The notes: generated by a model not told the origin, from the letters alone. A stretch of DNA of 64,000 nt from Bacteroidales bacterium (GCA_003157015.1 PMIJ01000040.1:1604-65603); one strand, 5' to 3'. Shown: positions 21,274 to 24,541, counted from the first letter of the stretch. Made by a program: numbers and translations.

Positions 21274-22356
21274 CTAAAGAGACTTTAAAGGTACAAAATA
21301 CTTTTTCTTAAACCATATAGCAACATTTACAAGTCCGATCATAATTGGTACCTCCACCAGGGGTCCTATAACTGCCGTAAATGCTTCTCCCGAGTTTAGC
21401 CCGAAAACTGTGATAGCAACGGCTATTGCAAGTTCAAAATTATTACTTGCTGCTGTAAATGAAAGGGTCGTTGATTGTTCATAAGATGCACCTGCCCTTT
21501 TGCTCATTAAAAAAGAAAACAGGAACATGATAAGAAAATAAATTATCAGAGGAACAGCGATTAAGATAACATCTAGGGGCAGCTTTACAATATATTCACC
21601 TTTGAGTGAGAACATTACGAAAATTGTAAATAACAATGCCACAAGTGTGACGGGGCTGATTTTAGGAATAAATCTGGTGTGATACCACTCCTTGCTTTTA
21701 ACCCTTATCAAAATATAACGGGTAAGGAACCCCGTGATAAATGGAATTCCAAGGTAAATAAAGACGCTTCTTGCTATCTGTCCTATGGTTATTCTGTCTA
21801 CAACCTCATTAGTAGGAACACCGAACCATCCGGGCAATACAGCAATAAAAATCCATGCATATACTGAAAAGAATAATACCTGGAAGATTGAATTAAATGC
21901 TACCAGCCCGGCACAATATTCTGCATCACCTTTGGCCAGATCATTCCAGACAATCACCATGGCAATACACCTTGCCAATCCGATCAATATAATTCCATAC
22001 ATATATGGCAGGTTTGAATTGTCTTTCCCCGGAAAAAGCTTGAAAAATACAATTGCAAGGGTAAACATGAGAACCGGTCCTATGATCCAGTTCTGAATAA
22101 GGGAGAGGCCAAGTATCCTGAAGTTCCTGAAAACTCCTCCAAGTTCTTCATATCTTACCTTGGCCAGGGGCGGATACATCATTAATATCAGGCCGATAGC
22201 AATAGGAATATTGGTAGTACTTTCTGGTGAAGATTTTAAAGAATCCCAGAATGCTGCAATCGAAGGGAAAAAATATCCGGAAAAAACTCCGATAAACATT
22301 GCCAGAAATATCCATATTGTAAGATAACGGTCAAAAAACTTTAGTTTAGGTTTCAT
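21274..22356 (-). CDS. acr3: ACR3-family arsenite efflux permease
   Basis: 360 aa. [17 protein letters not shown]..., [15 protein letters not shown], and the conserved-Cys segment [18 protein letters not shown] are typical of Acr3/ArsB(ACR3). Confidence 0.9.
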
Positions 22357-22389
22357 AAGAAGATATTATGATAGTTAGTCAATTTGATG

Positions 22390-22689
22390 CTAGCAACAGT
22401 TTGCTTTTGATTCAGAACAACCGCATGTAGGTTCCGAGTTCCTGAGTATCCCGTTAATTATACCGGCAGCACAACCAACACCCGAATTTACTTTTATTGC
22501 CTGCACCTGGCAATTTAAAGCACATGCCCCGCATTCCATGCAATAATCTCGTCTTATGATATGAGCTTTTCCCCCGGAAAGTTCAAACACTTCGTGAGGA
22601 CAAACCTTTATGCACATTCCGCATCCGTTACAAGTAGTTTCACACAATTCAAGCGTGACTACATCAGGAAGATACATTAAATCTTTCAT
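22390..22689 (-). CDS. hgcB: HgcB, 2x[4Fe-4S] ferredoxin of the mercury methylation pair
   Basis: The ORF track begins at 22746, overlapping hgcA. The ATG at 22689 gives MKDLMYLPDVVTLELCETTCNGCGMCIKVCPHEVF...DYCMECGACALNCQ...TCGCSESKANCC. That is two CxxCxxCxxxCP-type clusters, the CMECGAC signature and a C-terminal Cys pair. It starts 10 nt after the hgcA stop. Confidence 0.85.
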   Translation of the reverse strand: MKDLMYLPDVVTLELCETTCNGCGMCIKVCPHEVFELSGGKAHIIRRDYCMECGACALNCQVQAIKVNSGVGCAAGIINGILRNSEPTCGCSESKANCC

Positions 22690-22699
22690 AATTAAGTTA

Positions 22700-23731
22700 T
22701 TAAATAAATTTCCCGACAACCTGTAAAATAATTCCAACCAATGCAAACACTATCTGAAATGGCACTGAGATCTTCATTTCTTTTTTGACACCCGATAATG
22801 AAGTAAATGTCGATGAACCTGTAAAATTCATTGCCAGGAAGGAAGAAATTGCGGTCATGATGAGAAACCAGGATATTATTTCAAAGATATTTCCCCGGGT
22901 GTACTTCGATAATAAAAGAATTAGAAATACCACAGTTCCGGCATAGAATCCCTTAACAGAAAATTTCCTCGCAGGAATATATGGAAGAAGCATTGGTGTA
23001 ATTACAATTCCCGCAATATATGCAAGAAATACTTTTAATATTGCAGGCCCACCTTCCCCTGAAAAATCTTTATAAGAAAAACCGTTCCCGCTTATCCCTG
23101 ATATCAAAAAGAGAACTGCCATTGCTCCCAGCAGGTAAAACTTCCCATACATGAAATCATTTGGAATAAGTTTAACGCGATCTTTAAAGTTAAAAGTAAC
23201 TTTCCTCATTTCCTTTTCAGCCCTGTTACCATCGAGAATGAATTTTTTTATGTCTGTAGCACGAACCGGACCGTAATGAACGTTAAAACCTGTCTCCTCT
23301 TTTACCTTATGAGCAGCAACTCCGGTTGCCCCAAGCTGAGGCAGGATTAATCGTTTGTGATTTACAATTCTTTCAAGAGAAACAAGCCTTATTCTGCTGA
23401 CAAGTTCTTTTGTACCGAACGTTCCTTTTCCTGCAGCACACCATACATTAACACCTTTTGTGTCCAGAACTAAGATCCACACATTTAAGCCTGTCATGTT
23501 TTTGCGAAGAATGTCAAATGTAAGTTTGTAGTTTGCGGTCACAAACACTTCCGATTCAGGACCCGGAGTGCCGACAGCATAGAGCCCCGGACCGACCCTG
23601 TATTTATTGCGGTTGATTCCCCAGCGCACCATAATGGCACCTAGAAAATCTTTGACACTGATTTCGGTTGAAATTTGAGGGACCAGAGTACCTGAGGCAG
23701 TAACTTTCCCAATTAAAAAAGAGTCTTTCAT
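22700..23731 (-). CDS. hgcA: HgcA, membrane-anchored corrinoid protein of the mercury methylation pair
   Basis: 343 aa. I translated the cap-helix motif N-V-W-C-A-A-G-K directly from 23449..23426. The surrounding segment RWGINRNKYRVGPGLYAVGTPGPESEVFVTANYKLTFDILR...WILVLDTKGVNVWCAAGKGTFGT matches the HgcA N-domain. The C-terminal part has about 5 TM helices. Confidence 0.9.
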   Translation of the reverse strand: MKDSFLIGKVTASGTLVPQISTEISVKDFLGAIMVRWGINRNKYRVGPGLYAVGTPGPESEVFVTANYKLTFDILRKNMTGLNVWILVLDTKGVNVWCAAGKGTFGTKELVSRIRLVSLERIVNHKRLILPQLGATGVAAHKVKEETGFNVHYGPVRATDIKKFILDGNRAEKEMRKVTFNFKDRVKLIPNDFMYGKFYLLGAMAVLFLISGISGNGFSYKDFSGEGGPAILKVFLAYIAGIVITPMLLPYIPARKFSVKGFYAGTVVFLILLLSKYTRGNIFEIISWFLIMTAISSFLAMNFTGSSTFTSLSGVKKEMKISVPFQIVFALVGIILQVVGKFI

Positions 23732-23732
23732 A

Positions 23733-24149
23733 TTAGATTAAAAAGTCGTTATAAAATATGTAAAATGTTGTTTTTATTTCATCTCTTATTCGTCTGAACT
23801 CGCTCATTATGAATTCCTCCGACCCCGAAGCTTTTGACGGGTCCTCAAAACCAAAATGGAGGCGATGCATTACTTTCCCCGGAAATACGGGACATGTTTC
23901 ATTAGCGTCATCACAAACTGTTATGACAAAATCCCACTCCTCATTAAGATACAGGTTCACGTTTTCAGGTGTATTGCGACTGATGTCAATACCTTCTTCA
24001 CTCATCACCGTAATTGCCCTGGAGTTAACTTCTGTTGCCGGAAATGTTCCGGCTGAAAAGACTCTGTATTTATTGCTGTATGACTGAAGAAATCCTTGCG
24101 CCATCTGACTTCGGCAACTATTGCCTGTACATAATATAAGTATTTTCAT
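23733..24149 (-). CDS. arsC: Arsenate reductase, LMW-PTPase (thioredoxin-coupled) type
   Basis: 138 aa. P-loop CTGNSCRS at the N-terminus, plus the downstream Cys pair VCDDANETCP. The stop lies 1 nt before the hgcA ATG. Confidence 0.9.
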   Translation of the reverse strand: MKILILCTGNSCRSQMAQGFLQSYSNKYRVFSAGTFPATEVNSRAITVMSEEGIDISRNTPENVNLYLNEEWDFVITVCDDANETCPVFPGKVMHRLHFGFEDPSKASGSEEFIMSEFRRIRDEIKTTFYIFYNDFLI

Positions 24150-24205
24150 TTATTTTAAATTTGAAAATTGAATGTGATTCAATCTTAAGGGATGAAAAGG
24201 TGATT

Positions 24206-24541
24206 TTATATACAATCAAATTCTGCAGAAATATTTATGTCGTTTATAAATTTTTCTGCTATTTTTTTAAACTCCAGAATTTTTGCAGGATTTAAACAAT
24301 AGCAGGTTTTAGCGCCTTCAGTCGTTCCCTGAATCAGGTCGGCTTCTTTTAATTCTTTTAAGTGCTGGTTGACAGTAGTCCTTCCAAGAGGTATCTCAAT
24401 AGCAATATCGCCGGTAATACATGTTTTTGTTTTCGCCAGGTATTTCAGAATTGCCAATCGGGCAGGATGACCCAAAGCTTTAAACAAAGTTGAACATTTC
24501 CGGAATTCCGGGCTGAATAGTTCATTTTTATTATATGCCAT
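24206..24541 (-). CDS. arsR: ArsR/SmtB family metalloregulator
   Basis: 111 aa. The wHTH segment is FKALGHPARLAILKYLAKTKTCITGDIAIEIPLGRTTVNQHLKELKEADLI. It is the first gene of the operon. Confidence 0.9.
   Translation of the reverse strand: MAYNKNELFSPEFRKCSTLFKALGHPARLAILKYLAKTKTCITGDIAIEIPLGRTTVNQHLKELKEADLIQGTTEGAKTCYCLNPAKILEFKKIAEKFINDINISAEFDCI

Follow-up and report, generated by a model that had tools for sequence, protein, structure and literature searches.

The mercury methylation genes hgcA and hgcB within a predicted ArsR-controlled arsenic resistance operon of a Bacteroidales bacterium

Why are the mercury methylation genes hgcA and hgcB found among genes for arsenic detoxification, and which signal would control them there? 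The question is raised by a DNA segment of 64,000 nucleotides (nt) from a Bacteroidales bacterium (GCA_003157015.1 PMIJ01000040.1:1604-65603), analysed at its full length and denominated here the window, in which five genes lie on the minus strand at 24541..21274 in the order arsR-arsC-hgcA-hgcB-acr3. The native function and the regulation of HgcAB limit the prediction of methylmercury production, and the locus is a clean, minimal case of hgcAB wired into a normal arsenic operon. The five genes probably make up a single chromosomal operon, repressed by ArsR and derepressed by a metalloid, from which ArsC, HgcAB and Acr3 would be produced together.

The genes of the locus

From arsR downstream, the gaps between the genes measure 56, 1, 10 and 33 nt. 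The arsC/hgcA junction is reduced to TAA-T-ATG, the hgcA start being found 1 nt past the arsC stop. Gene order, coordinates and gaps, the 1-nt arsC/hgcA gap included, had been given in a first-pass annotation of this DNA, and all are exact. It had also stated that arsM is missing from the window, and a tblastn search of the 64 kb at E <= 1e-3 found none; arsP, arsF, arsG, arsN2 and DsbD-like genes were similarly not found at this threshold.

Diagnostic motifs are found in all five proteins. Four exceed the curated NCBIfam cut-off, while ArsC remains below its equivalog cut-off. The hgcA product (22700..23731, 343 amino acids, aa), the corrinoid protein of mercury methylation, scores 437.6 bits against NF040863 (cut-off 275), residues 17-342 being aligned on positions 1-324 of the 325 of the profile. 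The cap helix, NVWCAAGK at residues 95-102, fits the expected motif N(V/I)WCA(A/G)GK and has its Co-ligating cysteine at Cys98; the motif is found as in the window in 80 of 85 related loci. Five hydrophobic blocks (192-218, 226-254, 256-275, 281-304 and 318-343) are recognized in the C-terminal part by the crude Kyte-Doolittle method (19-residue window, threshold 1.5). Directly 3' of hgcA, hgcB (22390..22689, 99 aa from the ATG at 22689) encodes the 2x[4Fe-4S] ferredoxin partner of HgcA, which scores 115.1 bits against NF040864 (cut-off 99). The CX2CX2CX3C motif occurs twice in HgcB, as CNGCGMCIKVC (residue 20) and as CMECGACALNC (residue 50), and further cysteines are found at Cys73 and in the C-terminal pair Cys98-Cys99. 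Methylation of Hg(II) by HgcAB is predicted from gene identity.

The arsenite efflux permease encoded by acr3 (21274..22356, 360 aa) matches TIGR00832 with 437.9 bits (cut-off 282.8). It features RCIAM at residue 129 (Cys130) and GPLVEVP at residue 331, whose conserved Cys and Glu are required for transport. The arsC product (23733..24149, 138 aa) is of the low molecular weight protein tyrosine phosphatase (LMW-PTP) type, scoring 71.5 against Pfam LMWPc (cut-off 23.2) and matching B. subtilis ArsC (1JL3) at E 5.2e-29; it reaches 131 bits with TIGR02691, the pI258-type equivalog, below the cut-off of 174.3. The P-loop C7-TGNSC-R13-S and C79/C86 align to the catalytic residues of 1JL3 (the Cys82/Cys89 pair of the family). 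The protein is assigned as a divergent thioredoxin-coupled arsenate reductase from catalytic residues and context, not from the equivalog model. Finally, arsR (24206..24541, 111 aa) encodes an ArsR/SmtB winged-helix repressor, recognized by NF033788 (60.8 bits, cut-off 55), HTH_5 (33.2, cut-off 22) and HTH_20. With its regulator, reductase and As(III) pump encoded on the same strand, closely spaced and preceded by a single predicted promoter/operator, the locus has the ars backbone.

Recurrence of the arrangement

Sequences related to hgcA were searched for in one genome per GTDB species, and the 80 best loci, mostly from Bacteroidales, Bacteroidota and Ignavibacteriota, with some from other phyla, were examined (related loci are indicated by L numbers). 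On the same strand, arsC is located at most 200 nt upstream of hgcA in 24 of the 80 best loci, and acr3 at most 200 nt downstream of hgcAB in 20. Both genes directly flank the pair in 14, and the arsC-hgcA-hgcB-acr3 order of the window is accordingly a recurrent one. Either arsC or acr3 is found within 6 kb of hgcA in 45 of the 80 best loci, and any of arsR, arsC and acr3 within the same distance in 55. The 1-nt gap at the arsC-hgcA junction is shared by the window and 7 loci, and in 7 more the two genes overlap by 4 nt (ATGA). Gene orders may be permuted (acr3-X-hgcAB-arsC, arsR-acr3-hgcAB, hgcAB-acr3-arsC, hgcAB-arsC-acr3), and larger clusters add ArsF, ArsG, an ArsP_1-family permease, ArsM, ArsN2, a nitroreductase, or a DsbD_2-like protein with a Cys-rich partner.

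The last of these deserves a description. A DsbD_2-family membrane protein of about 233 aa, with CxC and CCNP motifs, is encoded directly 5' of hgcA in 14 of the 80 best loci (among them L040:4984-5995, L049:1897-2896, L062:4965-5965, L044, L024, L031, L017 and L029). Its gene is usually preceded by that of a Cys-rich protein of about 96 aa, with a single transmembrane segment (CxCxDxCCPPKK ... CDTTKxSSCCPKK) and no family match. The pair, which may be a thiol relay or a metal(loid) hand-off module, is found also in an ars operon lacking hgc genes (L113:4021-4963).

Predicted promoter, operator and transcription unit

Two 18-bp imperfect palindromes fitting TAACGTA-N4-TACGTCA are found 5' of arsR, and are the predicted operator. 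On the coding (minus) strand, box 1 (24584..24601) reads TAACGTA-TTTA-TACGTCA, and box 2 (24555..24572) TAACGTA-TATT-TACGTCA. No other sequence in the 64 kb matches TGACGTANNNNTACGTCA at up to 2 mismatches (2 found, 0.09 expected). The -7 element of Bacteroidetes promoters has the consensus TAnnTTTG. Box 2, which ends 13 nt before the arsR ATG, carries TATATTTA (24567..24560), a one-off match to this element, and a repressor site overlapping the -7 box is the classical layout of autoregulated ars operons. Box 1 is kept upstream of arsR in L001, L002 and L040, and also in the hgc-less operons L100, L104 and L091. A search permitting as many as 3 mismatches, and run without a background control, found sequences fitting the operator family TG(A/T)CGTA-N4-T(A/G)CG(A/T)CA at 30-40 nt 5' of arsR; 14 of the operons concerned contain hgc genes and 12 lack them. 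Since one operator family serves operons of both sorts, the regulator is, on this evidence, the ordinary ars repressor of the lineage and not an hgc-specific one. A second ArsR subtype is associated with a single box, ATGTCG-TATGTTTG-CGACAT, with a perfect TAnnTTTG at its centre. In two loci the operator region directly 5' of arsR is replaced by tandem repeats, (GAAATCT)n in L049:1-140 and (AGGGAGAA)n in L004 at about 5040-5100.

The first-pass annotation had seen no hairpin or terminator between the genes. A terminator scan found no site in any junction, sites being located inside coding regions only. The sole AT-rich hairpin, in the arsR-arsC spacer (-6.4 kcal/mol), is not significantly more stable than shuffled sequence (z = -0.87) and has no counterpart in L001 and L002; it was therefore rejected as a terminator. 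TAnnTTTG is absent in every intergenic spacer and in arsC. A sigma-70 promoter scan, which gave 30 sites against 22 +/- 5 expected, was dropped as uninformative for Bacteroidota in favour of the TAnnTTTG scan. The shared, ArsR-controlled transcript proposed at the outset is supported by sequence features, namely the tight and conserved junction, the lack of internal terminators and -7 elements, an operator found solely 5' of arsR, and the recurring gene order.

It is very improbable that hgcAB are transcribed mainly from an internal promoter of their own, independently of ArsR, or that the locus results from a chimeric assembly. TAnnTTTG-like motifs do occur inside coding regions, but none is found in arsC or in the 1-nt junction, and a 1-nt gap or a 4-nt overlap, as seen in 15 genomes, leaves no room for a promoter. 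As to the assembly, HgcA sequences identical to that of the window occur in 85 blocks of the assembly collection. Independent contigs from JGI (3300037061, 3300037090) and ENA (ERZ28655259, ERZ27248448) agree with the window in gene order and in flanks (peptidase S41, dCMP deaminase, DUF2231, FISUMP, the operon, LysE, DUF190, CrcB), and L001 and L002, which are species-level metagenome-assembled genomes of Bacteroidales, show synteny in the flanks. GC content and GC at third codon positions (GC3) of the five genes fall inside the spread of 30 other open reading frames (ORFs) of the window. The suspicion, voiced in the first-pass annotation, that the layout might be unique to one assembly or chimeric is dispelled by the identity of at least four independent assemblies, the synteny of the flanks and the native composition. 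An origin as a mobile island was also rejected, as housekeeping genes are found within 10 kb on each side, integrase and transposase domains are missing, and GC and GC3 are native.

The ArsR regulator and its plausible effectors

Three cysteines of ArsR are conserved in the hgcAB-linked homologs, Cys41 in 31 of 31, Cys82 in 30 and the C-terminal Cys110 in 26, while Cys16 and Cys80 are lineage-specific. Cys41, Cys82 and Cys110 would suit a three-sulfur (S3) As(III) site.

In the favoured reading, the unit would be transcribed from a single Bacteroidetes-type promoter located about 10-20 nt 5' of arsR, with the -7 element inside operator box 2. ArsR dimers bound to both boxes would repress the whole unit, and would be released once Cys41, Cys82 and Cys110 are occupied by a thiophilic metalloid, which is most probably As(III). 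One polycistronic mRNA would result, in which the 1-nt arsC-hgcA and the 10-nt hgcA-hgcB junctions would favour coupled translation. ArsC would reduce As(V) to As(III) via thioredoxin, and Acr3 would export As(III), as established for these families. HgcAB, a membrane-anchored corrinoid protein with Cys ligation and its ferredoxin, would be produced alongside, so that the capacity to methylate Hg(II) would be arsenic-responsive. If so, arsenic exposure would control methylation capacity in Bacteroidales widespread in sediment, peat and groundwater.

Several points weigh against this reading. Co-transcription, promoter and operator are all deduced from the sequence, and the operator search across other loci was the permissive, uncontrolled one described above. 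Perfect TAnnTTTG motifs inside hgcA (23522, 22889) and acr3 (21442) may be internal promoters, or equally the result of chance. The canonical As(III) site of ArsR proteins is the ELCVCDL motif of helix alpha-3 (Cys32/34/37 of R773 ArsR); the window ArsR lacks the CVC site, and has at this place the sequence KTC41ITGD, with a single Cys. The effector could not be assigned via solved structures, as all matches are weak (E ~1e-5) and of mixed specificity (SqrR, a persulfide sensor; CgArsR; CzrA, a Zn sensor). Because of the missing site and of these matches, the effector could be other than As(III). Non-canonical S3 sites occur in other ArsRs, however, and lack of the CVC site does not therefore exclude As(III) sensing. 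In Pseudodesulfovibrio mercurii ND132, finally, the level of hgcAB transcripts did not predict the methylation rate, and deletion of hgcAB did not clearly lower As resistance (10.1101/2022.10.17.512643).

ArsR might take part in a general response to soft metals and metalloids, sensing several thiophilic species including Hg(II), or HgcAB might handle Hg(II) co-occurring with As in sulfidic sediments. The pair would then be co-regulated for Hg handling and not for arsenic chemistry. The protein is equally distant from As, Zn and persulfide sensors, so that its effector is not assignable, and the three conserved cysteines could bind Hg(II) too. The DsbD_2-like and Cys-rich proteins encoded directly 5' of hgcA in 14 of the 80 best loci recall, in addition, thiol-relay metal import. 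This explanation is nonetheless quite unlikely. The same regulator and operator are found on hgc-less arsC-acr3 and arsC-arsM-acr3 operons, and should therefore belong first to the arsenic system; moreover, Hg methylation gives no Hg(II) resistance, according to a passage of PMC10083202 citing Gilmour 2011.

Regulator and structural genes do not always travel together. HgcA of L012 is 81% identical to that of the window, ArsR only 49%. Two ArsR subtypes exist among close relatives, and the module of regulator and operator has apparently been exchanged independently of the structural genes. L012, L003, L005, L009 and L010, whose ArsC, HgcA, HgcB and Acr3 are 65-90% identical to those of the window and whose ArsR is only 46-51% identical, carry the other subtype with its single box, in contrast to the window, L001 and L002. 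A further variant is encoded at L058:5194-5985, where an ArsR domain is fused to a C-terminal GNAT/ArsN2-like acetyltransferase (263 aa in all), and the gene ends 16 nt before hgcA.

A variable slot between arsC and acr3

From a scan of metagenomes anchored on the Acr3 of the window, the 80 best loci, at 68-91% identity, were examined; 41 of these have arsC upstream on the same strand. The interval between arsC and acr3 is empty (17-185 nt) in 15 of these 41 operons, holds arsM in 12 (ArsM being confirmed by NF008823, 333.5 bits, cut-off 263) and hgcAB in 5, to which two truncated contigs are to be added. Other contents of the slot are arsN2, the DsbD-like pair, a 23S-rRNA-IVS four-helix gene and a proC-like gene. 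When aligned to the hgc-less L087 and L099, the window DNA is matched over arsC and acr3 only, and positions 23747..22354, containing hgcAB, stand as a 1.39-kb insertion. The window acr3 is 70-77% identical at the DNA level to acr3 of the hgc-less L085, L087, L099 and others. Similarly, L120 (arsR-arsC-hgcAB-acr3) and L118 (arsR-arsC-arsN2-acr3) share 80-81% identity in arsC and acr3, the sequence in between being unrelated, and L049 and L113 correspond to one operon with and without arsM plus hgcAB.

As the relatives of the window Acr3 are mostly found in arsR-arsC-acr3 operons that lack hgcAB, have the same operator, and leave the interval empty or fill it with arsM, arsN2 or other genes, hgcAB is, by this comparison, a cassette of about 1.4 kb in a variable slot of a normal ars operon. 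Canonical Bacteroidales operons of the arsR-arsC-acr3 (L087, L099, L094) and arsR-arsC-arsM-acr3 (L089, L090, L096, L101) types encode Acr3 proteins 75-86% identical to that of the window, are homologous to it at the DNA level over arsC and acr3, and have the same operator family 5' of arsR; they lack hgcAB, and the interval measures 17-185 nt or contains arsM (about 0.8 kb), in contrast with the 1.39-kb hgcAB segment. On a 61-tip Acr3 tree the presence of hgcAB requires 14 changes, against a mean of 19.9 and a minimum of 12 for shuffled labels. The cassette was plausibly gained, lost or exchanged many times in a conserved ars backbone, where it alternates, and sometimes coexists, with arsM, arsN2 and further genes for the handling of arsenicals. 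The 23S-rRNA-IVS four-helix genes (PF05635) are repeatedly found in the spacers of ars and ars-hgc operons, either between hgcB and acr3 or between arsC and hgcA/acr3 (L004:7388-7735, L041:7379-7738, L045:6167-6520, L015:5572-5943, L095:4548-4931, L128:4595-4945).

A slot of this kind might be no more than a permissive site of insertion or recombination, where hgcAB gains expression by hitch-hiking and has no arsenic role. The apparently unrelated inserts in the slot (23S-rRNA-IVS four-helix genes, the proC-like gene), the scatter of hgcAB on the Acr3 tree, which is near that of shuffled labels, and ND132, without a clear As phenotype (10.1101/2022.10.17.512643), all fit this explanation. It is however rather doubtful. 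Linkage of ars genes and hgcAB takes at least seven different gene orders and spans several phyla, which one permissive site can hardly explain, and the 45 of the 80 best hgcA loci having arsC or acr3 within 6 kb would be far above what is expected for about one ars operon per genome. In addition, the tightening of arsC-hgcA junctions to 1 nt, or to a 4-nt overlap, suggests selection for co-expression.

The slot may also be read in terms of substrate. HgcAB of ars operons could be an enzyme handling arsenicals or metalloids, with Hg(II) methylation as a side reaction: either a corrinoid-dependent, SAM (S-adenosylmethionine)-independent counterpart of ArsM, methylating As(III) or Sb(III), or an anaerobic corrinoid demethylase of methylarsenicals, whose As(III) product would leave via Acr3. 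The new support is positional. In 12 of 41 related operons it is arsM that fills the slot occupied here by hgcAB, in others arsN2; the operon is under a generic ars operator, and these genes have apparently been swapped in and out many times. According to family annotation, the slot cassettes arsM and arsN2, and the cluster genes ArsF, ArsG and ArsP_1 permease, act on arsenicals; this is not true of other slot and cluster genes, as the DsbD_2-like gene with its Cys-rich partner, the 23S-rRNA-IVS four-helix gene and the proC-like gene. Linkage in permuted orders across phyla (L017, L029, L035, L050, L059, L067, L070) points in the same direction, as does one statement in the ND132 report that the hgcAB deletion is more As(V)-sensitive (10.1101/2022.10.17.512643).

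An arsenical-handling HgcAB is nevertheless unlikely. It would imply that environmental mercury methylation is a promiscuous side reaction, with expression set by arsenic exposure. According to its proposed mechanism, HgcA performs a carbanion-type methyl transfer from a Cys-ligated corrinoid, which fits electrophilic Hg(II) and is unsuited to As(III), with its lone pair. The cap-helix motif was compared in ars-linked and unlinked HgcA, and no difference was found. ArsM is, like HgcAB, a methyltransferase module, and its gene shares both operon position and regulator with hgcAB, but the two are unrelated in fold and cofactor, ArsM being a soluble SAM enzyme and HgcA a membrane-anchored, Cys-ligated corrinoid protein working with a ferredoxin. 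ArsM is an As(III) S-adenosylmethionine methyltransferase, whereas an arsenic substrate for HgcAB is hypothetical. Both are found together in 5 of the 80 best hgcA loci (coexisting in L040, L049 and L030, in the first two within the same slot), which speaks against simple functional replacement, and strict mutual exclusion is ruled out.

Relation to described hgcAB-ars loci

The first-pass annotation implied that the position of hgcAB between arsC and acr3 was new. This is not the case, as McDaniel et al. 2020 (mSystems, PMC7438021, Fig. 6) already reported hgcAB regions that have acr3 and arsC on their flanks and arsR and arsM in the vicinity. In Peterson et al. 2025 (PMC11984097), arsR, acr3 and arsC adjoin expressed hgcA genes, and Lake Mendota bins with arsR-linked hgcA have lower hgcA/gyrB transcript ratios. 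The neighbourhoods of both studies (PMC7438021; PMC11984097, Fig. 4c) contain the same five gene families as the window, which differs in being one more genome, of a Bacteroidales lineage. The association has been summarized also by Zhang et al. 2023 (PMC10349881). The arrangement is thus widespread and published since 2020, and the window is a further example.

The link between hgcAB and arsenic resistance was tested explicitly by Gionfriddo et al. (10.1101/2022.10.17.512643; AEM 2023). In ND132 an ArsR-like regulator controls hgcAB, and both As(III) and As(V) raise transcripts; methylarsenicals were not detected, and hgcAB could be lost with no clear loss of As resistance. In the same work, arsR was found with hgcAB and other ars genes in Bacteroidetes including Paludibacter jiangxiensis. 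Among the loci examined here, L060, from a metagenome-assembled Paludibacter genome, has the order arsR-arsF-arsG-arsP-arsC-hgcA-hgcB-arsN2-acr3. The two ideas put forward for the window, metalloid-responsive expression and a metalloid-related substrate, had therefore already been stated, and partly tested, in ND132 (10.1101/2022.10.17.512643). In the arsR2-hgcAB locus of this strain (Goni-Urriza et al. 2020; 10.1101/2022.10.17.512643), as in the window, an ArsR/SmtB-family gene is located upstream on the same strand. ArsR2 is co-transcribed with hgcAB and represses them; in the window co-transcription and repression are predicted from the sequence. The ND132 locus lacks arsC and acr3, ars operons being found elsewhere in the genome, whereas the window has both genes at the locus. 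The four-Cys motif of ArsR2 (Cys47/49/86/88) also differs from the three conserved cysteines 41/82/110, plus Cys16 and Cys80, of the window ArsR.

Because the general point has been published, and partly tested in a Desulfovibrionaceae model, the window adds an instance and not a concept. The additions made here are modest increments, and consist in exact spacing, a predicted promoter and operator, support from independent assemblies, frequencies, and the slot observation. The predicted operator/promoter, the regulator shared with hgc-less operons, and the equivalence of the hgcAB slot with that of arsM and arsN2 were not found in the searchable literature; the last sharpens the hypothesis that HgcAB has a part in metalloid metabolism.

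Genes flanking the operon

Downstream of acr3, at a distance of 64 nt, is found a gene for a LysE-family transporter (Pfam LysE; 20361..21209, minus strand). Folding of the spacer gave no significant hairpin, and the gene may be co-transcribed with the operon. It is outside the conserved ars/hgc module: its place directly 3' of acr3 is shared by none but the closest relatives (L001, L010, L012, L081), and it is located further downstream in L002, L003, L082 and L084. A crcB-DUF190 pair (19608-20343, plus strand) is convergent with the LysE gene. This pairing is typical for fluoride export. Rfam at gathering thresholds gave 0 matches in the 64 kb, and hence no cobalamin or fluoride riboswitch, and a tRNA search of the window found none.

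On the other side, a small ORF (24671-24919, minus strand) is found between the FISUMP gene and the arsR promoter. The product resembles a lipoprotein, with LSAGC as lipobox, and its conserved C-terminus, ATQHKYKKYKPIPCPCEKENKK, includes a CPC motif. Counterparts are located at L001:4694-4831, L002:4884-5069 and L012:1384-1506, and in L161, L162 and L164 the gene is predicted by gene callers too, with a product of 77 aa. The gene was considered as an operon member and rejected: it adjoins arsR in L001 and L002 and is absent elsewhere, and is probably outside the operon because it is 3.7 kb from arsR in L012. At a larger distance, two antiparallel ORFs of 244 aa each overlap nearly in full (31532..32266, minus strand, and 31542..32276, plus strand), of which only one is likely to be real.

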